Assembly (NCBI GenBank): GCA_044892505.1
Contig: CM097883.1
Span: 19,840,001-19,904,000 of the forward strand
Direction of reading: 5' to 3'
Length of the DNA stretch: 64,000 bases
Source of the DNA: Schmidtea nova
Lineage: Eukaryota
Shown here: one piece after another, positions 2,661 to 62,230 of the stretch
Layout: each line of letters starts with the position of its first letter
Numbering within the stretch: the first letter of the stretch is position 1
Position numbers and translations under genes: made by a program
The notes under the pieces: model-generated
Database searches by the model: none
Told to the model about the DNA's origin: nothing
Seen by the model: only the letters and a program-made list of their open reading frames with translations

Positions 2661-2675
2661 ATTTTGTCTTTTTAA

Positions 2676-15420: not shown

Positions 15421-17088
15421 TTATTAATTTGTTAACTTGGTGTTTTTTTGATTATTTAAATTAGCTGCGTGCGCGACCTCTTCGTACTGTTTTACCGATG
15501 TTATTAGACGAAAATTTGTTGGGTCAAGTTGTTGCCCAACAGTTGTCATGTAATGAGAGCCAAGAGGAGAAAGTTTAAACTTATGTTGCATTTAAGTAGT
15601 TGAGTTAATTGCAAAAGAATTACATAGATTATTTATTAAATCAGCTACAAAACATCGATACTAGTACCCCTAACATTTGTAGCCATTAGAAAGCATAAAT
15701 TAGGAATTAGGAAATTTTTTCTTCGATATTTTCATGTTTATAATAATCCCAAATAACTTTAAATAATTCATTTAAATGTAAATATTTTATTTTTATTTGA
15801 TTTATTTTATAGCCTGATTTTAATTTAAATAACGGCAAAATAGTATTATTAAAATTTTTAATATAATGAATCTTTGTTTAAATGCCTACATTAAATAAAT
15901 CATGGCTAATTTATCAAATGAAATTTCTTCTCTTGATCAACTCTTTTCGATATCTTAGAATCAGAAAATGAAGTAGCTAAAAAACGCAAAGCGAAATCTT
16001 TAAGTAACTATTTTACTTATTTTAACATTTTATCTGTTACTATTTTGTTTTTACTATAAGGTCAGTCAAAGCTCAAATCGAAGCAGCAAAAATTGTACGA
16101 AATAACAATTTCTTACAATAATTTCAATTTGTTAGTTGTTTTTATTTTCTTGATTTATTATATAATGTTATAATGTATAAATGATAATTCAGATATAATC
16201 AGAGGTGAATTAATTTTAAAGGAAAAATAAATAAAATTACGCAATAAATTACAATTTAATATTTATTTAGAGAATAAATTAAAGGAAAATAACGAGGACA
16301 AGGTTAGAAAAGCTTTTCCTATTTATTGCCTATTTATTTCCAAATTTATTGTCAAGTGTTTAGTTTCACTGATTAAACTGCCTAAAAATATCACTTATAA
16401 TTATTAAGATCTTACTCTAAAATTAAAAATCTATTTAAATAATCCAATTGTAATAAATGTGAAGTTTTCAAATACATGTAAATGTTCGAATCTATAATTT
16501 AAATCCAGATAATAAATATTCATAATTTATTAAATTCCAACAAATACGATGTTGAGATATATGCTGAATATCATATTTCATTAAGATATTAATTAAACTT
16601 GGATTACTATATCAAATATATTGAGATTGATAATTTAATAGTTGATAGTGCTGGCCAATCATCAAAACGTCCCATATTGTGGAAAATTGTCTTTTTTAAA
16701 CATGTATCGCGTGTATAGGCACTAAATTTTAAGATAATTTAAAAGATTTAATATAATTTCCCTTGAAAGTTATTAAAAAATCATTTGTGGTTTTCGAATT
16801 TATTTATTAATTTGAAAATTTGTCTTTATTAGATTTAAAATTTTTCTGATCAGAACGATTTTTGGTTTTATAATAGGATCTCGATTTCTTGATTGGCTTT
16901 TCTTTTTAAAATTTACTTCTGTAATTTGGATTATAATTTCTCCTCTTTGGGTTAATTACTACCTTCCATACTTCAAGTCACTCAGACGCAACATACAAAT
17001 TACAACAATTTCAGAGAGACAATCGATTTATTTAATAATTTTTCAACTACACTGATCATAGCATTTTCATCGAGCTTTCCCAGGAACC

Positions 17089-19081
17089 TCAGAGGCTCCA
17101 ATCATGAGCGTATTCGCTATCGCTCCGTTGAATCTCGTTTGCGTAGTAGAAATCTGGGTTTGGATCCCAACACAATTTCCTTTTGTATAGAAAGACCTCT
17201 TGCCATTCGACACATGCTGCCCATGTTGAACTTTACTCGCCCGTGGCCGGTGCTCCAGTAGGCAAATTAGTATACGGGATCAGTTAGTCTCCGGTGACCA
17301 GATTCCGTGGTCGCTCCAAAATTATATATCCCAGACGGTGGATTTCGGACACTGCTATTGGCTGAATAGGCGACGCTCTAGTGTATGTCGCCAGAAAATT
17401 TAAAATAAAAAAATGAATTTTAAATTATAATTTAAAACTAAAAACATATATTTATTCAAAAATAAACTAAATAAGTATTAACAACAGTAACAATCAGATT
17501 TTTTATTCTAAATTATTTTAAATTATTTAAATTATTTTAAATTATTTAATTATTTTAAATTATTAAATTATTTAAAATTATTTAATTATTTAAAATTATT
17601 TTTAAAATTATTTTTATTTAAATTTATTTAAAATTTTCGGGCGACATACATATAAATTATTTTATAAATTATAAATTATTTATAAATTATAAATTATTTT
17701 AAATTATTATAAATTATAAATTATAAAATTATAAATTATATATTATATATAAATTATTTATAAATTATTTTATACACATAAATTATTTTAAATTTTTTAA
17801 AATTATTTAATTATTTAAAATTATTTAATTATTTAAAATTATTTAATTATTTAAAATTATTTAATTATTTAAAATTATTTAAAATTATTTTTTAAATTAT
17901 TTTATAAATTATAAATTATTTATAAATTATTTATAAATATTAAATTATTTTAAATTATTTTAAATTATAAATTATTATAAATTATTATAAATTATTATAA
18001 ATTATAAAATTATAAATTATAAATTATATATTATATATAAATTATTTATAGATTATAAATTATTTTATACACATAAATTATTTTAAATTTTTTAAAATTA
18101 TTTAATTATTTAAAATTATTTAATTATTTAAAATTATTTAATTATTTAAAATTATTTAAAATTATTTTTTAAATTATTTTATAAATTATAAATTATTTAT
18201 AAATTATTTATAAATATTAAATTATTTTAAATTATAAATTATTATAAATTATTATAAATTATTATAAATTATAAAATTATAAATTATATATTATATATAA
18301 ATTATTTATAGATTATAAATTATTTTATACACATAAATTATTTTAAATTATTTTAAATTATTTAATTATTTAAAATTATTTAATTATTTAAAATTATTTA
18401 ATTATTTAAAATTATTTAATTATTTAAAATTATTTAAAATTATTTTTAAAATTATTTTATAAATTATAAATTATTTATAAATTATAAATTATTTATAAAT
18501 TATAAATTATTTAAAATTATAAATTATAAATTATTATAAATTATAAATTATTTTATACACATAAGTTATTTTAAATTATTTAAAATTTTTTAAAATTATT
18601 TAATTATTTAAAATTATTTAATTATTTAAAATTATTTAATTATTTAAAATTATTTAATTATTTAAAATTATTTAATTATTTAAAATTATTTAAAATTATT
18701 TTTAAAATTATTTTTTATTTAAAATTATTTAAAATTTTCGGGCGACATACACTAGAGCGTCGCCGGCTGAAAATGGGTTAGCCATCGGGGTTTTTCAGAT
18801 GTTTCCTGCATTTCGATCAACCAATTCAATTTACCCAAAGAGGGTTGGCGGGTTTCTAGCGGCCAATGGAAGTCACCTTCCCATCGCAGCTTGATTCTCA
18901 GTAACTTTTCGCTGGAAAAGAATCCCAATAAATCGTGTGTTCTACGCCAATGGCGCAAATGTCTCTTTATGTCGTCCTGGAGTCGTTTTGGCGCGTCGTT
19001 TAACGCTAATATATTTAAAAATGAACGAGCGGGGTCATTCTTCCACTTCGCGTCTTTATAGAGGTTACGCCGAACTTTCAT
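17089..19081 (-). pseudogene. Unknown ORF family, copy A, split by a foldback MITE
   Basis: 18765-19081 joins 17089-17368 in frame after removing the MITE and one TSD: RHLRHWRRTH..LRWEGDFHWP..WLIEMQETSEKPRWLTHFQP|IAVSEIHRLGYIILERP..EVFLYKRKLCWDPNPDFY. Homologous to copy B. Confidence 0.75.
17369..18764. mobile_element. Foldback/Mutator-like non-autonomous element with an AT-only internal satellite
   Basis: TIR GGCGACGCTCTAGTGTATGTCGCC(A/C)GAAAATTTTAAA at both ends. 9-bp TSD GGCTGAATA/GGCTGAAAA (8/9). Interior of AAATTATTT and TTATAAA repeats. Confidence 0.85.
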
Positions 19082-19791
19082 GTTGATATTTCTAAAACAA
19101 CTGAGATATTATATTTATTTAATTAGGGGTTGGGATTTCGTCTCACTGTGTTCCTCATTCGCACCATTCATTAGACATTCTTTCATCACGGTACCTCATT
19201 TGCTCATCGATTTTATGGTATTTATCACTCTGCATTCTCTCATGCGCACTGTGCTGGTTGCTGTTTTTAGTGTTGGCTGGATCCAATCGGATCGCTGGTT
19301 TTTATATAATACATCATTTTTACCGATTGCATTCAATTTTTCTTGACTAATTTGATTATGGTATCAGCTCATCATTCGACGTGCAACATACGTTTTTGGT
19401 TATTTTGAAATTTACAGTCAATCCAAGTTCTCATCTCTGGCTTCATCAGACTTCGTTATACAACATTCGATCAATCATAACTGTCATTTACAATCATTCG
19501 TAGGGAATGTTCATTTCCCAGTTGCAATATATCTATTTCGGTGGGTACGTTTCAATGCTTCTATCGTCATGTCATTACGAGCGACTTGCATAATCAGTTC
19601 AAAAACTATCCACGATGCTATGTGCATTCCCACCGAGTTCCCTGAGTTTACCGAAAACTACGCCGCATTCACCATCACCCTGAATGATATGCGCTGAGAG
19701 GCCCTTTGGCGCCTTTCAGGTCCCGAGACCCTCCAGACGTGGTCTTAATGATTTTAGACATATTCATCATGAGAGCTCACATCAATTGAAT

Positions 19792-19962
19792 NNNNNNNNN
19801 NNNNNNNNNNNNNNNNNNNNNNNNNNNNNNNNNNNNNNNNNNNNNNNNNNNNNNNNNNNNNNNNNNNNNNNNNNNNNNNNNNNNNNNNNNNNNNNNNNNN
19901 NNNNNNNNNNNNNNNNNNNNNNNNNNNNNNNNNNNNNNNNNNNNNNNNNNNNNNNNNNNNNN
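19792..19962. other. Assembly gap (N run)
   Basis: 171 N bases. Confidence 1.
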
Positions 19963-20399
19963 AGACCCATAGACCGCCCCATTATCTCGAAAACGTACTT
20001 GGTTGAATCGTACCTTTCACGATTATTCCATTTGTCATAGTCAAGTTCGTTCGCTATGAATATTGTGTCATAAGAATCGAGGCCTTGACCTACTGTGGCT
20101 CTGATGAGTTTCTTAGTTATAGATGATAAATCATCCGCCATGGTTATGCCTGGGAACAAAGGGAGAAAATGCTCTTTGATTAAATGCTCAGTGATTACAA
20201 AATAAAGTTGAATCTCTCATGTCATCAATGAAAAGAATCTCTTTTCGTTCTTAAGTTCACGCTCTTTTGGTTTTAAACCAATTACCAAGTCCTCAGAGTT
20301 CAGTCCGTGTTCATTGAACTTAGTAAAAAATTCCCGCACATTCAAATCTTTATTTAGAAGTGACAACATCTCTTTTTCAATTCTTAGACCTCTTACTGC
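19963..20399 (-). pseudogene. L: Endogenous rhabdovirus-like L (RdRp) fragment, pre-motif A and motif A
   Basis: [53 protein letters not shown]...GQGLDSY...IANELDYDKWNNRER matches the vesiculovirus-type KERELK..RFFSLMS / GLTMADDL / DYEKWNNHQR region. One TGA at 20217-20219. Confidence 0.92.
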
Positions 20400-21748: not shown

Positions 21749-22147
21749 TCACCAGAACACTCCTGGCAGTAGCACAAATGCCCACATGTGATGAGTAGAA
21801 CATTCGCTTCTCTTTGGCGACAACTCGATGTTTCGATTTATCAATTTTTCCAACTTGTCCATAATTTTATCGATTTTATCGATCCATTCTCGTATTTTCA
21901 CGTTGAAGCTCGGTTTTTTCAGTCGTAATCGTTGTAATTCGTAAATCGTCTCTAGTGAAATATCATTTGTTACTCCTGCAATTCCAACGATCACGACTAA
22001 ATTCTCAGATTGAGGCCTAGGTTTCAATAATAATTCATCTCTTTTTTCGTTTATCCGTTCGAGTTTCTCGCTTAACACCTCTAGTGGGTCATTTTTGAAA
22101 TCGAAAAACGACTCGATTCGTTGTAGAATCTGTTCAGTCGATTCCAT
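21749..22147 (-). CDS. Hypothetical 132-aa protein
   Basis: ATG ORF with helical, charged composition; no motif recognised. Confidence 0.35.
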   Translation of the reverse strand: MESTEQILQRIESFFDFKNDPLEVLSEKLERINEKRDELLLKPRPQSENLVVIVGIAGVTNDISLETIYELQRLRLKKPSFNVKIREWIDKIDKIMDKLEKLINRNIELSPKRSECSTHHMWAFVLLPGVFW

Positions 22148-32534: not shown

Positions 32535-32568
32535 AATTATTATTTAAATTCAAAATTTAAATCACTAA

Positions 32569-32571
<3 letters not shown>

Positions 32572-32624
<53 letters not shown>
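32572..32624. repeat. (AT)n microsatellite in the viral intergenic region
   Basis: Direct reading of the sequence. Confidence 0.95.
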
Positions 32625-32627
<3 letters not shown>

Positions 32628-41312: not shown

Positions 41313-42367
41313 AACTGTAAAATAGCTGTGCCAATTATTAGCTAGTTTTAGTTTTTAATATTTTTTAGCGATTCGTTTTTAATTTGTGTATTGGACTTAC
41401 TATAGTTATTTACTATAGTAAGACAATTTAAATTCATTTTGAATTTATAATTTAAAATTTGGTTAATTTTGGTTAATTCCAAAATTAATTATAAATAATA
41501 ATAAATAAAAAATATAAATAAAATAAAAGTTGGGAGGGGGGAATATACAACACACGCACTAAAAAACATCCCAAAATAAATAAATTACACAAATTTTGAT
41601 CATAACACACACATATATATATATGTGTGTGTATTTTTTTATTATAATTTTTTATAATTTTATAATTTTTATAATTTTTTTAATTTCTATAATTTTTTTA
41701 TAATTTTTTAAATAATTTTTTTAAATAATTTTATTATTATAATATATATTGTGAATGCTTTTATGTTTTTATCAACAGAAATCTGCAAGGGCCCAAAAAA
41801 GTCTCCAAAAGCTTATTGTTGGGACAATTGGGGTGTATGCTTTGCTGATGCGTTGGTTAAGTTTGTCAACTGAGGTTATATTTGATGTTATTCGTCAGGG
41901 TAACCTCGCCAACATAAAAACGCTTCCCCGTTGACACCCATGATGTATCCCTAACTACTCATCATGTTGGTATTGTTTCAACGTTGTGAAATGACAAGGC
42001 AGGTGAGCAACCTTGCGGCTACTATTCCCTTGTTTATTCACGGGTCCACCACTACCGTTAGAAGGCCTGTGTGGCTTTGTTCCGGTCCCTTCTTACTCAA
42101 TCTCTCAACTAGGGTATATTCGATTTCTGTACGTCCTATAGCATAAAATGAATTTGGTTTTGTTCAATCATCTCATTGATTTAAACGACACATACATTCC
42201 CCATTCATGCAAGTCAATCAATTCAGTTAGAATACATTTATTTAATTCAACAACACAGATGGGTTTATCACTGCGAGTAGCTGTTTCTCGGCGAGACCAC
42301 TCAGAAGGTCCACCTCAATTCCAATTCGTTCGGCATACTTTCTTCTTTCCCACCGTCGTTTCGCGCC

Positions 42368-42799
42368 TTATCGATTTTTCCGTTTTGTTCGCTTGGATCC
42401 CTCGGCTTTCGGTGTAGTTTTCGGAGTATCCACTGTCGAACTCACATCTATCTCTGTCTGCACACTTGTAGAGACACTTGTGGACTCTATCCAGCGGTTG
42501 AAGGTGCTGGCTCGGATGAGAGGTCGTAGCTGTTGTGTTATGAAGTCCTTCATCGACGCCCTCATGTAGTTGTTCAACTCCAGTTTCACGGCCGCTGTTT
42601 CCTGTGCTTGGTCCTCAGCCCTTCGCTCGGCGTGATATATGGCTTCCTGTATCGTTTTCACGCGTTCCGAGTGAAACCACGTCCTTTTGATTATGCGATT
42701 CTTATTTGCCATTTGGCCTATTCTACTTTCGAGTGCTGCAACTCGTTTGCGCGCTTCTTTCGCCTCCTTCCGGTAATCTCGATTGGTTGGGGCATGCAT
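42368..42799 (-). CDS. Hypothetical coiled-coil protein with a basic C-terminal tail
   Basis: 143-codon ATG ORF in a GC-rich island immediately downstream of ORF-family copy B. Confidence 0.5.
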   Translation of the reverse strand: MHAPTNRDYRKEAKEARKRVAALESRIGQMANKNRIIKRTWFHSERVKTIQEAIYHAERRAEDQAQETAAVKLELNNYMRASMKDFITQQLRPLIRASTFNRWIESTSVSTSVQTEIDVSSTVDTPKTTPKAEGSKRTKRKNR

Positions 42800-43667
42800 C
42801 TACAAGGAAAAGAATAAGACGATTTTATCGGTAATTACGTGGATAGCGCCGGCTCTTTCCCTCTCTCTGGGGGCCCTAATAAATCAATTCAATCCGGTTT
42901 TCCCCCAGTAATGCTCTAATTCGTTCTCCACTCATCATTCAATTTCACCCATTCAAGACAGAGAAATTTCTAACTACACATATATTTATTGAGCATTACA
43001 CCCATATACAAATCTATCACAAGTCAGCGAGTCTTTACCAGAAATCTAAGATATCCTGGTCACAACTCCGGTCGTCCCATCCGTGCGCATTTGGTTGGTA
43101 GAATTCCGGACACGGAATTCAGCACAGGGTGTCACGATACATGAAGATCTCGTTCAGTCGGTTGTACTTCTCATTTCGTAGTGAATTCATATCCTGATTT
43201 CCTGGAGCATTTGAGTAGGGACGAAATTCGCCGGTACGTCTACATTGCGGCTGATCTAGCAGCACGTATCCAATCTGCTTTAGCCTCTGGGTTGATAGGT
43301 GATTGAATGCGAGCAACCATTGAGGGGTGGCTTGTGTAATGTTCTGTGGACACCCGTTTGAATACAAAATTCTGACATAAATAGATGTTTATGAGTGTTT
43401 TATGTACCTCTGAAATTGTGTGAATCGGAGTTGTAAAAAGGTTGTTAGATATGTGAAAATTTTATTATTTGGTTATTTTATTGTACATTGTTTAGGATTA
43501 TGTGAATTGGGGTTGTAGAAAGAATTATTAAATATGTAAAAATTTTATTATTTGGATATTTTATTGTGCATTGTTTAAAAGAGTTTGTTAAGCGGTTAAC
43601 CCGCGCACAAATTAATAGAAATAAATATTTAAAAGAAATTTCTTAAAATTTCTTACTAATTGATCAA

Positions 43668-44768
43668 ATGATTTTCATTATGATAAAATTAATATATATT
43701 TTTGAATTTATCCACAGTATCTTTACAAACAAATTGTTGCAAGTCGATATTAGACTGACAGACATCGCCAGGAATATTGAATCTGTTAATGCTACGGCAA
43801 CTTATAATGTTGAATTTGTCAATATGAAGTGGAAAATAAACGTTTTTTATTACAAATACTTTCTAGATGTCAGACCATTGAAAGTTTCTGCTAACGGTAA
43901 ATGTTTGGAAGTGCCTATCAATTCCTATGGATACATCCCTACGGAGTCCAAGGAATCAATGTTGGGATATTTCCGCATCAATGATAAATATGGAATCAGC
44001 AGATTAGTTGAATCGCATGATAAGCGCTATCAACCGATTTACATCGCTAACGTGCCAGTGATTATTCTGCCTGAAATCACAGAAATAGTCGCCTTAGAAA
44101 TGAAGGGATTTATGGAACTATCTAAAACTTTAAAACTAAATAATTTTAATAAACATTGCTATGCCAAAGTTGTTATTGTGCTCTACTTTTATGTCAATCT
44201 TAGTGATAACATTGAATTTGTTACTGAGAGAGAGAAATTTATAAAGATCGAAATATGTGTACAGAATATACTTCTCCGTTTAAACTTGATATTTAATCAA
44301 CTCCCGTGGGAAATAAGGATCGAGTTCTCGGTAGATAACTTGCCTATTTTGACTCCAAAAATGTGCTTGAGTGACTTTAAAGGTCCCCGTTATCCGGTTT
44401 CAGTGAATAGTTATGGCAATTTGAGTTTAAGTGCCCGGGAATTGCTCGAACTTTTTAAAAGTGATTCTTCTAGTAGATGTTTTAAGTTGGAAGGCCAAAT
44501 GCCGTTCACCGGTATGGTTTTAAGGTTGAATGCTACTTTCTATAGATCTTTGACAATGATCGTCCAACATTATTACATCGACATTATTTTCGGATTGTTT
44601 GTATTCATTGTCTGTACAATGTGCATTTTTGAAGGTTCTTATATGATGAACTTATTAGTCTCAAGAAAATTACGATTTTATTGTCAATTGATGTCCTATC
44701 AAAATCCGAAAGTGAATGTAGTTAGAGTATGTACTGTACTATCAAATCCATGTGTGTATCATTTTTAA
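43668..44768 (+). CDS. Unknown 366-aa protein with a two-fold internal repeat and a hydrophobic TM-like segment
   Basis: W.I...P.K....V.(I/V)NSYG occurs twice. Hydrophobic segment YYIDIIFGLFVFIVCTMCIF. The ATG lies inside the left TIR. Confidence 0.65.
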   Translation: MIFIMIKLIYIFEFIHSIFTNKLLQVDIRLTDIARNIESVNATATYNVEFVNMKWKINVFYYKYFLDVRPLKVSANGKCLEVPINSYGYIPTESKESMLGYFRINDKYGISRLVESHDKRYQPIYIANVPVIILPEITEIVALEMKGFMELSKTLKLNNFNKHCYAKVVIVLYFYVNLSDNIEFVTEREKFIKIEICVQNILLRLNLIFNQLPWEIRIEFSVDNLPILTPKMCLSDFKGPRYPVSVNSYGNLSLSARELLELFKSDSSSRCFKLEGQMPFTGMVLRLNATFYRSLTMIVQHYYIDIIFGLFVFIVCTMCIFEGSYMMNLLVSRKLRFYCQLMSYQNPKVNVVRVCTVLSNPCVYHF

Positions 44769-44996
44769 ATGGTTATTCAATCTTATGAGATCCTCCTTGG
44801 GTCATTACCCGATGGTTTCGATAGAGCTTTGGTTCGACCCGGAATCCTCCTTTCCCTGTTATCCGACAAAACTAAAGTATATTCATATTTTTTTGTAAAT
44901 TTATGTAAATTAATCAGCGAGGGAACAAAAATAAAATTGATGAATCGGCAACCACGCCAAAAATCTGCATACCTTGGTGTGGTTTCCGGTTCATCA
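44573..44996 (+). repeat. LTR or LTR-part; 419-bp direct repeat with 47364-47782
   Basis: Two substitutions noticed between the copies. Internal TGATGAAC (44644) and terminal GTTCATCA (44996) form 8-bp inverted termini. AATAAA at 44930. The second copy lacks the final CATCA. Confidence 0.85.
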
Positions 44997-46409
44997 AATT
45001 GGTGTCAGAAGTTACTCCCTCCCTCCAGTAACATTTATATTATCCTAAATAACACTTTATTTTATTCTATTCCCACATTTATTATTTTTCCTATTCCTTC
45101 CCAAATGGAGGCGCTACAATCCTGGGCGGGACTAACTGAATTGAAGGTACATGGAAACCACATCATAAGAACAACCGGGTTTTTAAACATTAAGAGGAAA
45201 CAAGTATCACACAAGTTCCTCTTCCGGTGTCTTAACAAGACTTCCGGATGGCAACCTCTGTGTCCGACGAAGTCACATTTGTCCTCAATGTCTTCATTGC
45301 TCCTAGCAATTGGCGTCCCAAGGGAAACACACCGCCACTTCTTTGTCAAGAAGTCCCAATCGGCGACACATACCCCAGTCATCACCACCTATTTCAACAT
45401 TATTCCCCGTTTGACTGGAGGAATGCAAACCGATGAGGCTAACGCAGACTGTGAAATCAGTCACATACAACCGCCAACACAACAAACAACACCAGTTATT
45501 ACCCCAATACCGTTTTTCCTAGACGGCGTTGGCTCCCCACAAACGTGGTTCCTGGCACTAGAAGTGACTCCAACCTTTCTACCCACTCAATCTCAAGGGC
45601 AGAAGTTTGGTGCACTCTTGTCCATGCTTCCAAGCACGATTTACACCACATTGTCCACCGCCATTGCAACTGCAGCCACGGCAAGTGAGCCCTACAACTC
45701 ACTGAAATCTGCAGTGCTAGACGCTTACCGACCAAAATTAGATCATTTATATGAGGCTTGGTTCCGAAATCAACCTCTCAATAATGAAAGACCAAGCGCC
45801 TTCCTCAAGCGAGCCAAGGAACAACTCGAGAGGATCCAGGCCGGTCTTACCAAAGACGACGCTCTACTCCGTAGGTTCTTTCTAAAAGCACTACCTACAT
45901 CAGCACAGTCCATTCTGGCCGTTGTTCCAAACACAACATTGGAAGAACTAGCCAAAATTGCCGACAAGATCGTGGAAATCAACACGTCACCTGTTACTCC
46001 ATCACCGGTAGTCGCAACAACAAGCCTCCCACACGCCGAATTAGGAGCACTAGTCAGCGCCATAGCTGCTTTAACATCGAGGATGGACAATTTAGACGCA
46101 AGTCTACACACCCGAGGTCGAAGTCGAACAGACAGTCGTGACAACAATCAAAAACGACATCGGTCCACATCTGCACGAGGGCTCATATGCTCCTACCATA
46201 AGACGTACGGAGACAAAGCCCAACATTGCTATGTCGGTTGTAGGTGGAACAACCGACTTCCAACATGCCTGCCTCGCAACCTTTGCATCTATCACGCAAT
46301 ATTTAAGACCGAGGCCAAAACATGCTTGGAAGGCTGCCGTTTCCATACTGGTAATCACAATACCAGTAACGTTAATCAAAATTCGTATAATAAGCCTTCG
46401 GAAAACTGA
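44769..46409 (+). CDS. gag: Gypsy gag (CsRn1-like CHCC type) with a long upstream in-frame extension
   Basis: P.F...P..WF..LE ... PY..LK..L ... RPS.FL ... LR..FL..LP ... LA..AD pattern. Two C-x2-H-x9-C-x3-C motifs. Confidence 0.88.
   Translation: MVIQSYEILLGSLPDGFDRALVRPGILLSLLSDKTKVYSYFFVNLCKLISEGTKIKLMNRQPRQKSAYLGVVSGSSNWCQKLLPPSSNIYIILNNTLFYSIPTFIIFPIPSQMEALQSWAGLTELKVHGNHIIRTTGFLNIKRKQVSHKFLFRCLNKTSGWQPLCPTKSHLSSMSSLLLAIGVPRETHRHFFVKKSQSATHTPVITTYFNIIPRLTGGMQTDEANADCEISHIQPPTQQTTPVITPIPFFLDGVGSPQTWFLALEVTPTFLPTQSQGQKFGALLSMLPSTIYTTLSTAIATAATASEPYNSLKSAVLDAYRPKLDHLYEAWFRNQPLNNERPSAFLKRAKEQLERIQAGLTKDDALLRRFFLKALPTSAQSILAVVPNTTLEELAKIADKIVEINTSPVTPSPVVATTSLPHAELGALVSAIAALTSRMDNLDASLHTRGRSRTDSRDNNQKRHRSTSARGLICSYHKTYGDKAQHCYVGCRWNNRLPTCLPRNLCIYHAIFKTEAKTCLEGCRFHTGNHNTSNVNQNSYNKPSEN
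45000..45012 (+). promoter_or_regulatory. Primer-binding site, tRNA-Leu-like
   Basis: TGGTGTCAGAAGT 3 nt after the LTR end, complementary to a 3' end ACUUCUGACACCA as recalled for tRNA-Leu(CAA). Confidence 0.8.
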
Positions 46410-47363
46410 AAACGCCATCGAACTCCCCCACAGTTTTTGATGGCGATCCCATAACCTGTGGACTCTTTTCTGTTCCCGCCGTACCTCATTCCCAGAACTC
46501 TAACGAAGTCGATGCCCCCATTCACTTCGTTATCGATAGCGGTTCCATCATCTCATTCCTACCTAATCGGTTCGGAACTGATAATAATCAAAAAAGGTCC
46601 TTCCGGACAGCCAGTGGCGAAAACTTTTCCACTATTGGAACAAAAAACTTAATATTCCAAATTCCTGGTCTGTCCAAAACTTTTTCATGGACATTCCAAG
46701 TCGCCGAGGTGATTCATCCACTCTTAGGTGCCGATTTTCTTGATGCTGAAGGTTTACTCCCTGATTGCAGAGAACGCAAATTAATCCTCTCACAACACAC
46801 ACCTAGAGCTCAAGTTCTTGACCACCTCTGTAGTGACGCCCTCAATCTCTTACCCGCCACACCTTGCTATATACAACAATTACTAAAGACGTTCCCAAAC
46901 GTCGAAAAGAGATCAAACAATCACAAACAAACCCTCTCTTTTCTACACGTCATAGTCACCAATAACGGTATGCCTAACAGAGAACGTATGCGACCACTCG
47001 CGCCCGAGAAGCTCACACTTGTCAAGGAAGAATTCAATAAGCTACTCGAAGCCGGTACTATACACCGATCGAATTCCCCTTGGGCATCACCCATCCATGT
47101 GGTTACAAAAAAAGACGGATCTATCCGCGCCTGTGGTGACTACAGACGCCTCAACAAAGTCACTATACATGACTCTTACCCCATGCCACTTATATCAGAC
47201 GTTCTTTCGAGATTACCTGAAGCTACAATCTTCTCCACTCTAGATCTAAAAAAGGCTTACCACCAAATCCCGGTAGCACCAGAAGACATCCCGAAGACCG
47301 CTGTTATCACCCCTTTTGGCTTGTTTGAATACAAATACATGCCATTCGGTCTCCGAAACGCAG
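46390..47363 (+). pseudogene. pol: Gypsy pol, truncated (aspartic protease plus N-terminal half of RT)
   Basis: In the -1 frame relative to gag: FVIDSGS, LLGADFL, SPWASP, DYRRLN, LDLKKAYHQIP, MPFGLRNA. It then joins the LTR repeat at 47364; no YxDD, RNase H or integrase. Confidence 0.92.
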
Positions 47364-48886
47364 TTACATCGACATTATTTTCGGATTGTTTGTATTCATT
47401 GTCTGGACAATGTGCATTTTTGAAGGTTCTTATATGATGAACTTATTAGTCTCAAGAAAATTACGATTTTATTGTCAATTGATGTCCTATCAAAATCCGA
47501 AAGTGAATGTAGTTAGAGTATGTACTGTACTATCAAATCCATGTGTGTATCATTTTTACATGGTTATTCAATCTTATGAGATCCTCCTTGGGTCATTACC
47601 CGATGGTTTCGATAGAGCTTTGGTTCGACCCGGAATCCTCCTTTCCCTGTTATCCGACAAAACTAAAGTATATTCATATTTTTTTGTAAATTTATGTAAA
47701 TTAATCAGCGAGGGAACAAAAATAAAATTGATGAATCGGCAACCACGCCAAAAATCTGCATACCTTGGTGTGGTTTCCGGTTTTAATTTTATCATAATGA
47801 AAATCATTTGATCAATTAGTAATAAATTTTAAGAAATTTCTTTTAAATATTTATTTCTATTAATTTGTGCGCGGGTTAACCGCTTAACAAACTCTTTTAA
47901 ACAATGCACAATAAAATATCCAAATAATAAAATTTTTACATATTTAATAATTCTTTCTACAACCCCAATTCACATAATCCTAAACAATGTACAATAAAAT
48001 AACCAAATAATAAAATTTTCACATATCTAACAACCTTTTTACAACTCCGATTCACACAATTTCAGAGGTACATAAAACACTCATAAACATCTATTTATGT
48101 CAGAATTTTGTATTCAAACGGGTGTCCACAGAACATTACAGCTTGCTCATTTTCAAATTGTATAAACCACTTCGCAGACGTTTCCGTGATTGCTCCTTGC
48201 GGCATTGGCCAAGAGAGGTCTCCTTCCCACCGCACTCGTAGTTGGAACAACAATGTGGTATCACGTACCGATGGATTAACGTGACTCCGCATCCATGCTC
48301 GTAGGTGTCGTTCTGCTGCATTCTTGATACTTATCGGGATAGTTTACGAATTTATGAATTTCATCTCCTTGTCAGAGCGACGCCTCCGCGGGACTTTATC
48401 CTGGTGCATTTTCTGAATAAAGGGTGGAAGAATTAAAGACGGGGTCGGGTAACTCTCGCATCATTTCATCATGCATCTCTCAAACCTCATCATACCTTGT
48501 CGCTCTCAATTCACATCATACATCATACAATCGACATAAATGATCATTACCTGAACGCGTTTATTCGAATTTTTGTTCATCTTCATTCAGTGGCGGACTG
48601 GCTACTTATTCTCAGGGTTGCTGATGTACCTCAGGGGCCCGTAATTGCATGCAGGGTCACGAATTCTTTCTAAACAAATTTTACCTCTATGTTAAATTTA
48701 CGTGAAAAATGACTTTTGTGCACACTATGGTAGTTACACACCAACATTGTAATATCATTTGATTACCCATTAAAAAGAAAATGATTAGATAGGCTACTTA
48801 TTAAATATTACAGCTCATTTAACACCAGAAAACAACACGTACAGTATGTGGAGCAAGTAACAGGCAGAAATAAACAGGAGAAAATG

Positions 48887-51782
48887 TTAGTACAGTAAAG
48901 CACGTTTTAATTCGTTAGAACTTTTTGCAAGGTGGTCTATGATGACATCATGATCTATGGGGAAATTCTTCTCTTCTAAAGCAATCAACATTAGTGCTTC
49001 TAGGTGTGGTTGTCCAATCGTTGAGCGCAATCGACTTTTTATTATTTTCAATTTGCTAAATGAGCGTTCACAACTGACCTGTGTACAGCTGAGTGTCATG
49101 ACCATCTTATACACAATGTACAAATTTGTGTAGGAGGAAACAAATAAATTAAGGAAAATCGAGAGCTTTGAAAGCACATACAAGACAGTTCTGACAAGGA
49201 ATGTTACTTTTCAAGCATATATCTTGAGTGTGCTCGATATCTTCATCAAAATTCAATGGACTGCTAGCCTCATTAACAGAAATTTCAGTTTGAAGGAAAT
49301 TACTGGACTGTATATCCCGGTAGCTGAGAGCAAACGAGACCAATTCATCACGCAAATCACACACATCTACATTCGCCATGCCTGCCAATTTTAAAAGAAG
49401 TGACGGATTTTCTTTGAGATAGGATTGGATGCTGTCAAACTTGTTCGGATCCAAAAGGCTTATGTCCATATACAGATCCTTGTTGGCAGAAAATCTTGAC
49501 TGGACTTGTGTAATTGCATTGTCAATTACACATTTAAAAGTGTCAATTTCAAATTTCCGGTTTGCAGAAAATGTGTATTCTTTTTCGTCATCTGCTTCAT
49601 AATTGAATTTCTTTGGTACACGATGTGGTCGGTGTGTATCATTTGCAATAAGACTTGAACTAACACCATGTTCTGTCAGCAAATTGATTTGTTCGATGAA
49701 CTTTACAGCTTTGGAGTGTATTTCATCAAACTTGTCTCGCATACAAAGTAAATGTCTTTCCAGATTGGTGATCATATTTAAGGCAGTCAAGATATCAAAA
49801 CCCTTGGTCTGCAAGTATTTTGAGACAGGTGATGTCATCAAGAAGATTTCCATGTACATGAAAGCAGATAAAACGTTTTCAAAGTTTTTCCAGTTGTCAT
49901 ACAATGACGATGCTTGAAAAGACACCTTGCTTTGAAATTCCGTAGACTGTGCAATTTCGTTTAATGTGTCCAGGACTAATATGAACCTTTGAGGATCGGG
50001 TTGACTTAAAGAGCCAAATATTGATTTCAAAGAATTTTCCCTAGCACTCCAACGAATCTCAAATATCTTTTTTAGCTTTACCTGTCGAGGTAGACCTTCT
50101 GAGTTTTGGATCCAGACAAGCATGCGTTTGTGAGATTCACTAAAAAAGTTAGCAGTGGAGTTGATTAGTCCAAACAAATTTTTTGTGCTTAAACTGGTGC
50201 TGGTTGCTTGTGCCATAACTAGATTGAGGGCATGTGCATAGCAGTGGATGTAGACCGAATTAGGTGATTCAGATGCAATTCGACTTTGGACACCTTGATA
50301 TTTGCCAGACATATTGGCAACTCCATCAAATGACTCTCCCAATATTCTTTCAACTTTTAAATTATCTTGAGTCAAACTGTCACGCATGATGTTGAACAAG
50401 TTTTCCCCCGAGGAAGAGTTAACAGAGATAAGGTGGTAAAGATGTTCATGAACAACACCTTCACGGACATATCGCAACACAATAGGTAATTGGTCAGTAA
50501 CGGATACATCTTGTGTAGAGTCCATTTGGATACTAAATGTGTAAATACCTCGTTCACTTGTTTGGTCAGTTGCTGTTTAATACAGTTACCAATAATAATC
50601 AAAATTTTGGATAAAATAGTTTTTGAAAAGAATGTTATAAATGATCCTCGTCCTGTTCCAGTTGAATAATGAGATTTTCTCTGCAACTTAGAAATGTGAT
50701 TTTGCAAAACTGAATCATATTTGGCCATTAGTAAGATCAATTCGAGATAATTACCATGATTATTTGAGAAATCCTTCAGAGAAGCGAAATTTTCATTACG
50801 ATAAGCTCTGAAACCAATGCACTGTTTTGCTAAGTACATTATTATATCCACAAGACGATGTAATATCAAGCGATTTGCTTTGACTTCTTGCTGCCGTTTT
50901 GCAATCATGTCAGTGTTTACATAATTTTCAATATTTTGTTCGCTTTTAGCGCGTAAATAAGCATTGACACTTTGCTTGTGGGTATCAGATTGTTCATGCT
51001 TCTGCACTTTAGCGTAAACATTTTTGACTGCTATCAAACAACCATCGTTTGCAAAAGGATGTTGAGCTGTCATATCGTCATCGAAACACATGCATAAAGA
51101 GCAATATAATTTAGAACTGATTGAATTCAATGAAAGCCATGTTCGGTTTACCTTCTCTCCATCGGATATTTGTCGATAATATAAAATCGAATAGTGTTTA
51201 AGGGTAAAGGCATATGTGGTTGTAATGGATGTTTGGCGATGAATTCCATCTTATGTACTAAGGAGGCGGATGAATGTGGTCGCTTAAACAAATCAATGCA
51301 CATTGCTTCATGGTTGTCATGTTCTTCAAAATGTTGCATTTGTTCTGATACAATTGCTCGTACAGAAGTTTGAGAGGATTTGACGATACCATTCTCATCA
51401 TTTTCGACTTCTTGAGAAAGTATCAGTTCAGATGCTGGAAGCTGTTCCGACTGTTGTGACAGTCCAATAATAGATGGTAATATTGAGCTACATATGACAG
51501 GCTGTTGTGAATGCATGATAGAATTGATAACTATCGGTAACATTGATTCTTTGCTGATGGACTGACTTTCTGAATGTGATGGGTTGACTGTTTCTTCAGT
51601 GCTGGCTGTCCTGCACAAATTAAAATAACATAAAACACACATAATGAAATAGGGCCTATATATGATTGCATGACTCACATGACAAATGATAATTTTCTTT
51701 GTTTTGGATCACAAGCTGCCTGGCCAATCTTATTTTGAGATATCAATTTTCGCTTTTCTGCACCTGATTTATGTTTGTACAT
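48887..51782 (-). pseudogene. ZMYM/TTF-type hAT transposase with one intron and three frameshifts
   Basis: Exon 1 MYKHKSGAEKRK (51782-51679), intron 51678-51611 (GTGAGT..TGCAG), RTWLS..LYCSLC, FSIQMDSTQD, FDG..NMSG, HCYAHALNL, RWSAR, and the SCERSFSKLK dimerisation motif. Confidence 0.92.
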
Positions 51783-52842
51783 TATACTGCAACCTAGAAA
51801 GAAAAGGTAAACATGAATGTGGGCATTGTTAATTATAAAGTTTCATATATTTCATAGAAGGGCCTATTTAATAATATTTTAACAAAAATTTAAAATCCTA
51901 ATAAATCAAATTAGGAAGTGAAATGATTTTAAGAAATTTGGTAGAATTTTCGACATTTTTCTTAAGCCCCATGTCCTATTTTCATTCTATAGTTGCGCTG
52001 AAAGAGAGGCTGTTAAATACTTAGAATGTGTCATTGTACATAAAGTCTGTTTTAGCAATTCAAGATGCTTCCTTATGATATGACTGTTAGATGACTGTTA
52101 TATTTTTGTCGACACTGTAATTTGGTAGCCGAAGACTCTTCGTTAGCCCAGACCCAAATTATACGCGGAAAGGTGTTTCAGTCAGTCCAGTTTGTTACGC
52201 CAGACATTAAAAGCTTCAACCTGTCTTTGAGAAAGGAGAACTCTGCAATAACAAAGTTGCCTAAAATAGATCATTCTGAAATCATTGATATTGGCCAGAA
52301 GTATACTTGTCGAATTAATTTGGAAAGTCTCTCTCTTTGATCATCAGTCAAATTATTACTCAGGTGATATAAAGTGGAATTTGACTTTATTGGGAATTTA
52401 TACGGAGCCAGTGGAACTCAATCTCACTATCATACTATAGACTTCCTGTCTATCTGGAAAGCCATCCTGTGAGTATACATATTTCATAGATACTGACATA
52501 AACCATAACAGTTTTAGCTGCTCACTCTAAGGCATAGGCACTAACAGTAAATAAAATACGAATAAAATCAACGCTGACACCAATGAAAGTAGCGTAAAAT
52601 TGATTCGAGAGTATTTTTTGAAAACTCAACTTATTCCTGATTGATATTTGTGTACTATCATTATCCATTATATATATGCAAAACTTTTAGAAGTAGACTT
52701 AATATCGTTTGGTAAATTATAAAGAATGTTGACAAAGAAACGAAAGAGTCCTTTTAATAGCGTAATTTTAATGAAATTTTATAATAATAAATTTAATATC
52801 ACAGTTGAACTTACGTCAAAATGATCCGTTAATGAAATAAAA

Positions 52843-55800
52843 TTGCATGCACAATGCAGAAATAAACTTCCAACAATGATGAAAAAATTTTGTGAAACCT
52901 ACGAATGCTTAGTTGAATTTCTGCACATTGCCATTCAGAGCACTGGTGCAGAAAAAATGAGTTTAAATGATTTCATTTCCCTATTTTATTTCTTTAAAAC
53001 AGGGCAAAAACATTCTATTCAGGAAAAGAAAGCCAAAACCGCATGGGAATTCGCACGGAAACTGATCAACCACCCGAATGGAAGGACGGCCGTATTAATC
53101 AATGAATATTTTAATGAACCCTACTGGTTAAAGAGGGACCCCGCGGTGATGGACCGAGCAGCCAAACTTAGCTGGAAAATGATTGGAACTTTCTTTGTAA
53201 AGAAAAGAGCGGTATTTTGTGATGAATTGATATTCTATATCATAAATTTTATATACACTTTTAAAGACATTTTTACAAAACATTCATCTCTTAAATATTT
53301 CATAAATGATCTACAATCACACCCCTGCTACCTAAAAATTGCTGAAAAAGAAACCTTTAATATAACTCCCTCTAATGAAGGGAATTATAATCAAATTAAA
53401 AATACTAGGAACAATTATATTTTAAATATTGAACAAAATAATAAAAATTTACAAAATCCCAAAATTAATGAATATTATAATAATAAAAATACGGATAGTT
53501 ACTATAAAGACACCATAAAAAATTTTAAATATGACAATTATTTTCTTAATGACAAAAATAAAAATTATGATTATAAATACTATAATAAAACTACATATGA
53601 AAATTTTAAAAATACCAATAATAAAAATTTCAAAAATAACAATTTAGAAAATTATGATAACAATGTCTATAAACTATTAAATAATAATGAAACTTTTCCT
53701 AATAAAAATATTAAAAAAGCATATAATTTTAACAACTCGAAAAATGATCTCCTTATAAATATACGTGATACAACTGACGAATTTTTTTCAAAAATTAAAA
53801 TCATTTTTTCAAAAATCAAAAATCAAAAAATATTAAATGATTACCTCTATATTTTTAAAAACAAAACATGCTTACTTTTTGAACAAAATAATTTGTTTAA
53901 ATATATACCATTAAATCTAACTTCCAACAATGATGAAAAAATTTTTCGACCTCCTTCGGAGGCCGAAAAAACTAATGGACGCAGCTCACAGGCCTTCGGC
54001 CTGTTCGCTGGTCAGAATAAAAGCTCAGAAAACTTATATAACACAAGTGATATGCCACCTACTGAAAATAGCAGAATATGTACTGCGAGAAAATTATACT
54101 CCAAAAACGAACTAAGAAATTCTACGATGAAACTTAATCAGGAAAAAACTCCACCATATGCAAAACCAATAATAACAGCATTTAATCAAAATTCACTTCA
54201 GACGAAAAAATCCGAAATACCTAAAAAAGATGAATTTAGATATATAAAACCAGCCATCTCAACAAAAAACAAGTATGACCTACTTATAAATGTTAAACCA
54301 ATTCAAGAAGACAGAAAAATACCTACAAGCCAAACTCCTCCATATGCAAAACCAATTTTAACATCAACAAATATCTTCTCACAAAAAAACATCACCGTTA
54401 ATAAAATAACCATTAATAAAAACTCCAACAATAAATATTACGGAGAAAATAAAAAAGAAGCAATAAAGTAATATGCCTAGATGAACAAATAAATGAATGT
54501 AAAGCTATTATTAAAGATATTGAAAACAATATTATTGAAGAAATCACTGAACAGAGAAAAAATATAAATACAGTATCTGAAATCACTCCTTTACCTGCAA
54601 TAAATGATACCTCTCCAAATGCGAAAAAAAATAACTTAACTAAATCATTCGACACTGAAAACCTACCTAAAGAATTCCTATCAAATAATAAAAATCTAAA
54701 AAAGAAACATTATTATGATGACCCAATTAAATGTGTTATTGCGTCAAGAAAAATCCAAAGGCTTTGTCGAAATAGCGAGAAAAATTTATCATATCTAAAC
54801 GAAAAAATTAAAAATCAAGAACAAGAAATCACTAATCTCAACAATCTTCTCTCAGCCTACAAATGTAAAAATCAAACAAGCTGCCAAACACCACCTCACT
54901 GCTCCAACCAAGGTACAAGCCATAGTACAACTCCTGATCCCTCTATCTCTTATAGCCCAGATTCATCTTTAAACTCTAGTGTGGGCAAAAATGTTGACAT
55001 TGACAATTCTATCTATAACTCACCAGATAATTCCTCATGCAATTATACTGAAGTCATCTATGCCCAAACACTCCTGAATATGATAATACTGATAAAACTG
55101 AAACCCCGATTCCTGCTTATAATTCTCAAAAAGACTTATTTGATGGCACACCATTAATCATCCCTGAAACTTTTAAATCATCATTACCAGTTTCTCAAAC
55201 ACTTTTTCAAGACACCTTGTCTAAACCACCACTTAATAGCACTCCAAATAGATCTACTCTAAATAACACCAATAATTCTGTTATAAATATTAACTCAACG
55301 ATTACCACCAAAACACCTGAGATGACTATAAGTATTGACAAAGACGATTTTTTGAACCAAAATAACACCTCCTTCGAAGACCTTAATCTATCATATACAT
55401 CAGACCATAATGACTCCACTTTTGCTCAATGTCCAATTGACGAATCAATTCTAGATAATACTATTAAAGGTAAAAAGAATTGTAACTTCGTTGTTGAGGG
55501 GGAAAATGGGAAAGTTTTCGAAATAGCCCACAATTTACAAGTCACAAACGTAACAAAAATAATAAATATCACAAAAAAAATATACGAAGACAATAACAGC
55601 ACAATAAATACCCATAATAGCAGCCAACAAAACACAAGCACAAATTGCAATTTTTTGGAAACAAATGAAACCATTCTTAACACAATAAATGACTCTCACC
55701 TATCAGACACACAAACTTCACACAATAATTCGAAAAATAAAATCCCACTCAAAAGAAACAATTTTTTCAGGAAAATGATCCTACTTTCAGCTATAACAAA

Positions 55801-58800
55801 GACCAATATTGTCACTGCTTACTAGGAGGATGCTCCAGAGTTTTACTAGGAGCAGATAGAATAGAAGAACTTAACAATCACCTCGCAACACATAACGAAA
55901 GAATCACAATAAAAACCACATTCAAATGCAACCTTTGCCTATCTAAAAACTGATTCTTTTTAGCGAAATTCTACAAAACATCAACAAAAATCACCCAACA
56001 CAACCTCCCAAACAAACCAAACAAGACGCCATTTACAATAAAAAACTAATGTTTTTATCCTTCAACAAAGAAGGCACCATTCTATGTAACATCAATGATC
56101 TCACTAGCTGCCCAAACAACCTCACAATCTACTCAACCTATGACCAAATAAATAAACACCTCCACCAAAAACATAGAAAAAAATATGTGACATAAATAAA
56201 ATTAAATGTTATTGTAATACTGAACTTGAGCATCATAACATTAAAGAACACCATAATGAACACTTAGGAATAACACCTGAAGACCCTAACACAATAACCA
56301 TTCCTGACACCATCCTTGTTTCCAACTCTGATATAGGTTCTCATTGACTAGACCAAAACACCATCTCTCTTTTCTTCCACAACTTTGTAAAAAAGACTTC
56401 CACGATCTTTATAGAACCTTTCATAGGCCTTTCTCTTATTAAAAAAGACTTCAATACCTTCTTTAACAACTTCCCTTTCAAAGACTACCCTAAATGGAAT
56501 GAAATTATTTGGCCTTTAAAAATACAAGGGCACCTCTGGATTGTTTTTTATCTTAACAAAAAAAATAAAATAGCTACTATTATTGACCCAACCTCTCCAG
56601 AAAGCCTTGAAAAACATGAAAATATCTTTTTCGATATATACAACGCCATCAAAAACATACACTCTATAATCACACCAATTAATATACCACCAACCAGCCT
56701 CAATATCCCTACTTGTAACAATATTCCACAATCTAACTTTTTTCTCTGCGGCATCCTCAAGGACCTTAACCACAATAATCCAATAACCACTCCATGCATA
56801 GATGACATTAAATATGACCTAGATGAACTCATCAAAAAAAACCATCAACGAAAGAAAACCCGACACAGATGCCACAAAATTTTACAACCACATTAAAAAT
56901 CTGACTGTTTCCCTCAACAACAACGAAGATACAGATTCTAATCTTACTTTAATTAAAAAAATCCACGAAGTTATTTTTAATAATAAATACTTTAAAAATC
57001 AATTAAAAAGAATATTAAATATAAAAAAATTAATCTTACTTATACTCTTAGAAGAAATTACAAAATTAAATGTAAAAAAACGATTGATGACATTATATAT
57101 AATAAACCAAATTTTTCTACTCCAGACCCACTTAATATTTCAAAACATTTTTTAACAAATAAAATTAACCTTAAAAATCTTAGTAATTTATCAAACCAAC
57201 AAATCGATGTTATCACCCCCCAATTCTCACTTATCGAAACTATAACCATCGATGAACTTACGAAAGCCTTCGAAACTCTAGATAAACGTTCCTCTCCTGG
57301 TTCAGATAAAATTTCCTATAGAGAATGGACTTTAATGGATCCTGACCACTCATTCCTTACTGCACTCTTCAACAATATTCTTAGAAATAAAAATAGTCCA
57401 TTAAGCTGGAAAACCTTCAAAACCAAACTTCTGCTTAAGCCTGGTAAAGACAACAAAACCTTCGAACTTTCCTCTTGGCGACCCATAGCTATCCTTGATA
57501 CTTCTTATCGCATATTCTCTTCTGTCCTTAACCTCAGACTCCTTGAATGGATCAAACAATTTAATGTTATTTGTCCAAACCAAAAAGCAATCGGCATCCC
57601 TGCTGGCTGTTCCGAACATAACACTGTCCTATCACTCATTAACGAAAGATCCTTCAGACGAAATACTGATATTAACTTCATATGGCTGGATCTTGCTGAT
57701 GCTTTTGGCAGCGTCCCCCATGATCTAATATGGCATACTCTTGAAAACCTTAATTTTGACACACAATCAATTGACCTTCTAAAAAATATGTATGATGATG
57801 TATACACTTTTTATGATTGTGAGGGAAACCTTACGAATAACATCAAAATTAATAATGGGGTGAAACAAGGCTGCCCCATGTCTATGACCATCTTTTGCCT
57901 TGCTATTGACTTCATCTTAAAAGACATCCTCCTTAACTTTCCTTATATTATCAATGACTACAATATAAGTATTTTGGCGTATGCAGATGACATAGTTCTG
58001 ATAAGTGAGAATAGGGATAAAATGAAAGAGATGCTCAATAGAACAATAAAATTAACTGATAAAGTAGGCTTAAAATTTAGACCAAGCAAATGTGGTTATT
58101 ACCAACATAAGAGAAACCATAACGATGAACCGCTCAAAATATATAATGAAAATATCCCCATAATCAACGAAGAGAATCTTTATAAATATCTAGGTGTGGG
58201 TTTTGGAGAAAAGGGTAAACATAACATCGATAATATCCTAGAAAAGGCACTTTTTGATACTGAAAAGATTTTTCAATCCGACCTCCACCCCACTCAAAAA
58301 ATTCACGCGTATAAAACTTTTATTCACTCCAGACTAATATTCCCCTTTAGAAATTGTAACGTTAACCACATGATCCTAGACTGTAACCGCAATAAGTCCG
58401 TCCAACATAGAGCTAAACAACTAGGCTTTGACCAAAAAATTAAAAAACTCTTAAAAAACCTGGTAAATGATAAATTTCAAAACATAAACAATAACTTTTT
58501 CTACGCTAACATAAACCTTGGGGGTATTGGAGTCACACCTAGTATAGACGAATATCTTATTCAAAGCATTATTCATTTTATTAGACTCCTTAACTCTAAG
58601 GATGAAAAAATGAAAAACTTTATATTAAATGAACTTATTGAAGCTACCCAAAAACGATTCAGAAATAAACAAATCGAAATGGCAGCAGCAATAAAGTGGA
58701 TAAATGGTGATTTGAAAGGGGATAACAGCGGTACTTTTTCTATCTTTTCTAAATTTCGAGATTCGGTTAACAGAATCTTCGAAAAATTTAATATAAAAAT

Positions 58801-61815: not shown

Positions 61816-62230
61816 AGCCAATCAAAATTGAGCATGTCTGTGTGTATTGATTACCTTTCATGGTTAGTGATTTTCTTTTGTGTATTAAATTCGGTAAGTT
61901 ATTGTTTGTTCATCATCATTCTTTTGTTAATCTTTGTTTTGTTTTAGATTATCATCGGTATCGGCCACGCCTGTCAGATTTTGGTTCCATCTGAGTAAGC
62001 TTTTGTATTGATATTTATTTTTGTTTTAATTCTTTTGTTAACTTTTCAGGCTTTGATGTGTACGGGTAATATGCCGACTGGTAGGTTATTTTGCTCAATT
62101 ATTTGCTTTACTTACTGTTATTTTATTTGACTTATTTTTATGTTTTATTTTCAGATTGCTTGGCCCAACAGCTTGTAAAATTTTGTGTGCGTGAAATATA
62201 ATCTTAACAAATAAATAAATATCTTAACAA
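61816..62230 (+). other. Compact four-exon transcription unit (micropeptide or lncRNA)
   Basis: CCAAT at about 61818. Introns 61894-61947, 61995-62049 and 62081-62153 have GTAAG/GTAGG donors and TTTTAG/TTTCAG acceptors. AATAAA at about 62210. Confidence 0.45.

Follow-up and report, generated by a model that had tools for sequence, protein, structure and literature searches.

Giant LTR elements with accessory ORFs have been described in planarians; among them, Burro are giant gypsy-like LTR retrotransposons that carry RING and coiled-coil (Smc-like) motifs and an env region that matches mononegavirus fusion glycoproteins (PMC6431247). This env similarity provides a precedent for exchange between giant elements and such viruses (PMC6431247). 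Among the viruses themselves, rhabdovirus genes are bordered by transcription start signals and [G/C]A7 termination signals (PMC4334499), U1/U2 is a known rhabdovirus duplication (PMC7967035), and flatworm rhabdoviruses are diverse, some of them with extra ORFs (PMC9241645).

The window analyzed here, by which we mean the whole 64-kb stretch of DNA, is AT-rich eukaryotic sequence, with a GC content of 22–35% in most 1-kb bins. Mobile elements nested in one another make it up: a hAT-like element, a mariner-type DDE ORF, a gypsy fragment and a non-LTR retrotransposon, along with satellites, TBP-like, RING and GIY-YIG ORFs, and a fragment of a Mononegavirales polymerase. Judged by this content, the host is presumably an invertebrate animal. 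Exact-sequence lookup in a 15-billion protein collection recovered none of ten window ORFs lying outside the family described below; the host is thus probably poorly represented there.

Several other residents of the window were recorded. On the plus strand at 1–3470, the end of a TBP-like ORF (Pfam TBP, E 3.6e-8) is followed by three short intronless ORFs and then a repeat tract; CCAAT/TATA sites lie 5′ of two of these ORFs, and one has signal-peptide and membrane-like stretches by eye. To all appearances, a large DNA virus integrated here and this region is its end. In an ambisense unit at 30627–34111, motifs like those of a rolling-circle Rep and a helicase were noted by eye in the plus-strand ORF, for which Pfam, PDB and NCBIfam gave no support, and the minus-strand ORFs include a parvovirus-type phospholipase A2-like domain (E 6e-5); an AT hairpin (32541–32655) lies between the plus- and minus-strand ORFs, and the unit is possibly an integrated ssDNA virus-like element. 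Seen by eye only, a decayed gypsy-type integrase C-terminal fragment (9293–9700) and a decayed DNA-transposon-like ORF (28941–29600) occupy the minus strand. A short dispersed repeat is present in three copies of 74–79% identity and in both orientations (11742–12030, 14171–14484 and 23150–23383).

Two copies of one protein family

Copy A is encoded on the minus strand in two halves: an open N-terminal half of 105 codons (18765..19081), with a basic N-terminus and the RHLRxWxRxH and RWEGDxxWP motifs, and a C-terminal half of 89 codons (17089..17359) with in-frame stops at its codons 25 and 42. Copy B, on the same strand, likewise consists of an N-terminal half of 89 codons (48141..48409), with one in-frame stop at codon 22, and a C-terminal half of 97 codons (43035..43329), with an in-frame stop at its codon 70. 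For copy B the initial annotation had given a span of 43035–48440; the C-terminal end at 43035 stands, while the start is corrected, as the Met of copy B lies at 48409 with 48440 upstream of it. The family escapes the ORF track, as had been remarked, because inserts interrupt both copies.

The alignment of A and B, originally put at about 150 residues, was borne out and proved significant under shuffling. With X placed at the breaks, 164 pairs align, 48 of them identical (29%), and the local BLOSUM62 scores of the N-terminal halves (108, z 16) and of the C-terminal halves (97, z 15) were reached by 0 of 2000 shuffles each. Within the window, tblastn with each half found the partner copy at E ~1e-7 to 1e-8 and otherwise no match below E 1, while blastn of A against B gave no DNA-level match. 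All eight motifs listed at the outset are present in the translations, with a stop taking the place of the Trp of the last motif in B. Sequence comparison therefore confirms A and B as distantly related copies of a real protein family of ~190–200 residues.

The history of the two copies can be read from their codons. Identity by codon position over 150 aligned A/B codons is 0.41/0.55/0.33, and the third base is shared in only 4 of the 20 identical residues that have degenerate codons; synonymous sites are thus saturated and the protein is conserved. Both lineages passed through long purifying selection and later decay. In-frame stops number two in the 194 codons of A and two in the 186 codons of B, so few that both copies must have been coding until fairly recently; in B they imply a decay of ~0.07 substitutions per site, a rough figure that derives from two events. 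In their present state, A and B are pseudogenes.

Conserved residues comprise eight Pro, six Trp, five Leu, four each of Phe, Tyr and Arg, three His, two Asp, two Glu and one Cys. The first 45 residues of the protein contain 11–12 Lys/Arg, and no transmembrane stretch is present. Because of this Pro, Trp and aromatic conservation, the basic N-terminus and the lack of a membrane stretch, the predicted protein most likely had a structural, nucleic-acid-binding or particle-binding role rather than a catalytic one; two conserved His may nevertheless point to a metal-binding or catalytic role.

The domain had not been recognized in the initial annotation, and no library that we searched recognizes it: the joined halves and the profiles built from them match no well-annotated domain there. 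An exhaustive HMM search of 1,835,955,588 representatives with the N-half profile returned three matches, all three of them sums of weak tandem-repeat matches, the best single stretch among these artefacts scoring 11 bits. In a word-seeded search of 5.8 billion proteins, none of 206 candidates among longer proteins was retained for the N profile and none of 66 for the C profile, for which proteins near its length gave no candidate; in the large protein collections the C half was searched via shared words alone, and profiles of two sequences are weak. Pfam matched none of four halves at E 0.05 and, at E 10, gave one weak match among five A/B pieces (transketolase, E 0.13). PHROGs yielded nothing significant (one of four halves, at E 0.075), NCBIfam matched none of four halves, and profile search of the PDB gave no match for the N halves and one for the C halves, at E 0.99. 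The ESM Atlas held no usable match for the N half of A, none of 85 pattern matches in GTDB genomes was confirmed, and tblastn was empty for the A N half against phages and for the B C half against plasmids. Predicted models of the halves are poor (pLDDT 53 and 36), and fold searches with them gave nothing significant and are uninformative. A literature search by motif strings and topic returned no paper on the family; subscription papers, repeat libraries and bioRxiv supplements were outside its scope, so that unpublished status is not implied. This lack of relatives shows a narrow or unannotated family, real and absent from all libraries searched, rather than a new fold.

Inserts and break points

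The insert in copy A (17369..18764) is a non-autonomous TIR element full of AT-rich satellite, with 40-nt TIRs that are complementary at 38 of 40 positions and a 9-nt target duplication (17360–17368 and 18765–18773; 8/9 match). TIRs with a target duplication of 9 nt are a Mutator-like trait, and by this criterion the A insert is Mutator-like, its interior being only satellite.

The insert in copy B (43335..48140) has 358-nt TIRs (357/358), TGTAA..ACA ends and a 5-nt duplication (5/5). It carries an ORF of 373 codons (43647–44768) that has no family match, Pfam included. The element also contains a gypsy gag-protease-RT fragment between 419-nt direct repeats (99.5%); the 419-nt repeat belongs to the interior of the TIR element itself and its right copy abuts the TIR, and the gypsy piece looks to have been captured via template switching rather than by a true LTR insertion. 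Ginger DNA transposons are described with TGTNR termini, TIRs of 40–270 nt, a gypsy-like integrase transposase and target duplications of 4–5 nt, those of TDD-4/5 being of 5 nt (PMC2836005). The B insert, alone of the two, resembles them in its TGTAA ends, which fit TGTNR, and in a 5-nt duplication as in TDD-4/5; it differs in a TIR of 358 nt, against the 40–270 nt reported, and in an interior without an integrase-like transposase (PMC2836005).

That each copy is split by a different TIR element, about 10 codons apart, holds on inspection. The break in B corresponds to residues 95–96 of A and the break in A to residues 104–106, a distance of 8–10 codons, and the two elements have unrelated TIRs and duplications of 9 and 5 nt. 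From the nearness of the breaks in the alignment it had been proposed that the middle of the gene is an insertion hotspot, or that inactivating insertions were selected, an explanation that we consider extremely improbable and do not retain. In an ORF of 195 codons, a pair of randomly placed points lies no more than 10 codons apart in 10.5% of cases, or in 15–17% if both halves are to be noticeable, and n is 2. The inserts also differ in element type and target sequence, and the two stop codons of either copy are unrelated to its insert. Furthermore, the B insert looks to postdate the start of the decay of B, because its TIRs differ at 1 of 358 sites as compared to the ~0.07 substitutions per site of the copy itself. 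The double insertion is compatible with chance, and neither hotspot nor selection is needed.

Gene signals and a candidate cassette around copy B

Both copies are on the minus strand and are followed by AATAAA, as initially reported: the signal of A (17027..17032, minus strand) starts 57 nt past the ORF end and that of B (42985..42990, minus strand) starts 45 nt past it. Shuffled 100-nt flanks contain AATAAA in 9.2% (A) and 7.5% (B) of cases, jointly ~0.007. The flanks of A and of B have no detectable protein or DNA similarity to one another. A 13-nt motif common to both 3′ flanks was considered as a gene-end signal and rejected, as the flank alignment was matched by 27% of shuffles and by 209 of 1676 window controls.

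Upstream of each start codon lies a candidate intron. That of A, a tentative 55-nt minus-strand intron (19092..19146), has a donor-like GT and a CTAAT branch-like site and ends 11 nt 5′ of the Met at an acceptor that is weak (rank 4 of 35). That of B, a candidate phase-0 intron of 138 nt on the minus strand (48413..48550), ends 4 nt 5′ of the Met at an acceptor ranking second of 75 and begins at a donor-like site at 48550, 5′ of which is an open exon of 12 codons.

A hAT-like element (48588..60915; TIR 13/17, 8-nt duplication 6/8) begins 180 nt upstream of B and splits it from its upstream sequence. Nested within it on the plus strand (52800–59790) is a non-LTR retrotransposon (RT E 3e-33) with a 5′ segment that resembles an Ulp1-type protease by eye and for which Pfam gave no match; this retrotransposon looks NeSL-like.

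With the inserts removed, a GC-rich block of ~2.9 kb emerges around B, in which the minus-strand order is promoter-like site and leader, a decayed ORF termed C, B, a coiled-coil-like ORF, and more decayed sequence. The promoter-like site and leader (61658..61823, minus strand) lie upstream of C and B. The site itself (61823–61789) has a CCAAT box at 61823 and TATAAATA at 61796, and the leader ends at donor-like sites at 61662 and 61658; this CCAAT/TATA pattern occurs six times in the window, one occurrence being upstream of the B cassette on the same strand. Divergent from this promoter, the plus strand at 61800–63800 has three short exon-like pieces with strong acceptors at 61947, 62049 and 62154, a second CCAAT/TATA site at 63237, and decayed ORFs (63350–63940) with no family match.

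The ORF that follows B (42236..42800, minus strand) is basic, coiled-coil-like by eye and open for 143 codons (42799–42368), with an AATAAA at 42242 and the acceptor ranking first of 75 directly 5′ of its ATG. It has no family match, and the ESM Atlas gave only low-score leads for it. The two best of the 75 acceptor-like YAG sites in the B block thus lie 1 nt (coiled-coil-like ORF) and 4 nt (B) 5′ of an ATG. Their scores equal those of the three intron-like plus-strand acceptors at 61947–62154. In the blocks tested such a site accompanies only 3 of 153 ATGs on the minus strand and 1 of 91 on the plus strand; the score is a simple weighting of our own, and we infer the use of these signals from sequence alone.

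ORF C (61150..61632, minus strand) would lie ~0.4 kb upstream of B without the hAT-like element and is a tentative third paralogue. Both first-motif His residues can be aligned to it, as can the last motif, and its score was reached by 0 of 1000 shuffles against the N-half profile, 7 of 1000 against the whole profile and 262 of 1000 against the C-half profile. Other tests gave pairwise p values of 0.15 and 0.39, a window-level E of 5.8, 57 of 200 shuffles in a frameshift-aware comparison and an hhalign E of 0.49; the tests disagree, so C was not accepted as a proven paralogue and its tentative status is retained. A candidate paralogue upstream of A was rejected, its score being reached by 23 of 200 shuffles.

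Two further minus-strand features of this general kind were seen between A and B. At 21700–22147, a short coiled-coil-like ORF occurs with a frameshifted C3HC4 RING finger (E 3e-6), with AG directly 5′ of the ATG. At 23608–24270, a second coiled-coil-like orphan ORF has a GC content of 47% and a GC3 of 0.56, a composition as in A and B; it shows no significant similarity (p 0.06) to the coiled-coil-like ORF that follows B.

The base composition of A and B is foreign to their surroundings. Their GC content is 45–48%, and together with the coiled-coil-like ORF after B they form a set with 45–50% GC, a GC3 of ~0.5 and no CpG depletion; the window yielded no recognizable host gene by which host GC3 could be calibrated. 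The gypsy fragment is similar to A and B (GC 46–48%, no CpG depletion), while the hAT and mariner ORFs have CpG ratios of 0.45–0.59.

Promoter-like site, candidate introns and AATAAA are ordinary signals of a Pol II gene, and A and B might accordingly be pseudogenes of a lineage-specific host gene family, each a last coding exon with its poly(A) signal, that were copied into DNA rich in repeats. That no element boundary was found fits this explanation, as does the missing record of the family, given that the proteins of an unannotated host would be absent from protein collections, like the ten other window ORFs. However, a GC3 near 0.5 is at odds with a window of ~30% GC, ~570 nt of coding sequence run without an internal intron, B is packed tightly in tandem with another orphan ORF, both copies are dead, and all neighbors are mobile or viral. 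We regard a host origin as unlikely, though a serious contender.

That A and B are the dead remains of accessory genes, once carried by a large mobile element transcribed in the nucleus, is modestly probable and is the explanation that we prefer; the element would be an integrated DNA virus or a retroelement of the giant LTR type. In favor of it are the old purifying selection with later decay, the foreign composition, the acceptor-like sites 5′ of start codons, the AATAAA signals, the CCAAT/TATA pattern upstream of the cassette and the residues conserved in the protein. The gene of a small soluble alpha/beta protein would have been carried as cargo by two long-diverged element lineages. Host RNA polymerase II would transcribe a cassette of short ORFs, a leader would be spliced, in cis or in trans, onto the acceptor just 5′ of each ORF, and each message would terminate at its own AATAAA. 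Integration into a transposon-dense region would have been followed by the decay of each copy, and unrelated non-autonomous TIR elements would then have hit the decaying copies by chance. Against this stand the weak acceptor of A, the lack of similarity between the flanks of A and B, and the Pol II signals themselves, which are equally to be expected of a host gene. Neither copy could be linked to an LTR pair or to a gag-pol, capsid or DNA polymerase gene: within the window, no repeat pair brackets either block, both blocks being cut by gap, satellites or inserts; the sole gag-pol piece sits inside the B insert; and Polinton/dsDNA virus genes (DNA polymerase, packaging ATPase, capsid) are absent from 20 neighboring ORFs and from the read-through flanks. 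The TBP-like ORF, at 1–225, is 17 kb from A.

Comparison with rhabdoviruses and giant elements

A fragment of a rhabdovirus-type L polymerase (19965..20378, minus strand, one in-frame stop) lies 0.9 kb upstream of A on the same strand; its closest PDB relatives are VSV L (residues 495–630, E 2e-40) and rabies L (E 2e-35). Between this fragment and A is an assembly gap (N, 19792–19962), into which the fragment runs. We considered A as a part of the L gene and dismissed this, as no L similarity was found past the gap (one frame against PDB, three against Pfam). With the fragment so close by, A and B could instead be endogenised M or M-like accessory genes, akin to the hapavirus PMIPs, that came from two different rhabdo-like viruses and were reverse-transcribed into the genome. 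The size of A and B and their identity of 29% are compatible with two viral M genes, and the low-confidence model of the N half is predicted to be ordered strand-helix-helix-strand-strand. This order would resemble that of the VSV M fold. An EGxxxxP strand and PxW and LG-aromatic motifs resemble, by eye, PMIP alignments (PMC4334499 S2 Fig). In a viral fold search, a 156-residue La Joya virus protein ranked seventh of 197 without being significant (E 1.2, rmsd 15.8); this protein is uncharacterised and at most a putative PMIP.

Several observations weigh against this viral origin. The blocks around A, B and C are free of [G/C]A7 and longer runs; A shows no more than five consecutive A residues, 44 nt beyond its stop, and decay could have erased a viral signal. 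Splice-acceptor, AATAAA and TATA signals are unexpected in a cytoplasmic RNA virus. A lies downstream of the L piece, rather than upstream as in the N-P-M-G-L order, with the assembly gap between them, and the scanned flanks hold no N, P or G gene. Pfam up to E 10 and sequence search of the PDB returned no matrix family, and the last ~60 conserved A/B residues are without counterpart in those PMIPs that were compared (PMC4334499). We therefore rate descent from rhabdovirus genes as distinctly unlikely. A flatworm host would keep it alive, because flatworm rhabdoviruses are diverse and some have extra ORFs (PMC9241645). The planarian virus SmedTV was rejected as a source, being toti-like (10.1101/551184).

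A hybrid of the two origins, which we deem very unlikely, is that a nuclear mobile element of this animal lineage captured a matrix-fold gene from a negative-strand RNA virus, endowed it with a TATA promoter, a spliced leader and a poly(A) signal of its own, and duplicated it in tandem as C-B; a retroelement or DNA virus would then employ a rhabdovirus-type matrix protein in particle assembly or host shut-off. If the fold should prove matrix-like, this would be a case of a nuclear element that acquired a structural gene of an RNA virus. Taken together, A and B are like rhabdovirus M and the hapavirus PMIPs in their size, in tandem duplication (if C is a paralogue), in the low identity of their paralogues, in a few motifs by eye and in the nearby L fragment; in contrast to the viral genes, A and B are without gene-end signals, stand in the wrong order relative to L, have Pol II-type signals and an extra conserved C-terminal part, and gave no significant sequence or fold match (PMC4334499).

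For the preferred origin as cargo of a nuclear mobile element, the closest described systems are Burro and the Terminons of bdelloid rotifers. An Rfam scan at E 0.5 returned one chance histone stem-loop and no hammerhead, and tRNA landmarks were absent. Like Burro, a large nuclear element with accessory ORFs, the locus has coiled-coil-like and RING ORFs near A and B; it differs from Burro, against which it was set by description only, in that A and B are without a linked LTR pair or gag-pol polyprotein, and in that the extra domains of Burro are mostly inside one polyprotein (PMC6431247). With the Terminons it shares chains of co-oriented accessory ORFs that include a coiled-coil, and the window has GIY-YIG and Rep-like ORFs as well; in contrast to them, no Penelope-type RT is linked to A or B and the Rfam scan found no hammerhead ribozyme, and the GIY-YIG and Rep-like ORFs of the window lie on the opposite strand, a long way from A and B (PMC6431247).

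On the best reading, A and B as decayed cargo of a mobile element, and their inserts as ordinary chance insertions, are of a known kind. What is new here, and unexpected, is the candidate spliced cassette around B, perhaps a trace of a large mobile element not yet described, in which several short genes would be expressed via splicing and separate polyadenylation; intact copies, should they exist, would establish a family of elements unknown so far, whose protein may have a new fold as well. By analogy, the A/B gene would work like the accessory ORFs of Burro and of the Terminons, with its parentage in either being putative.
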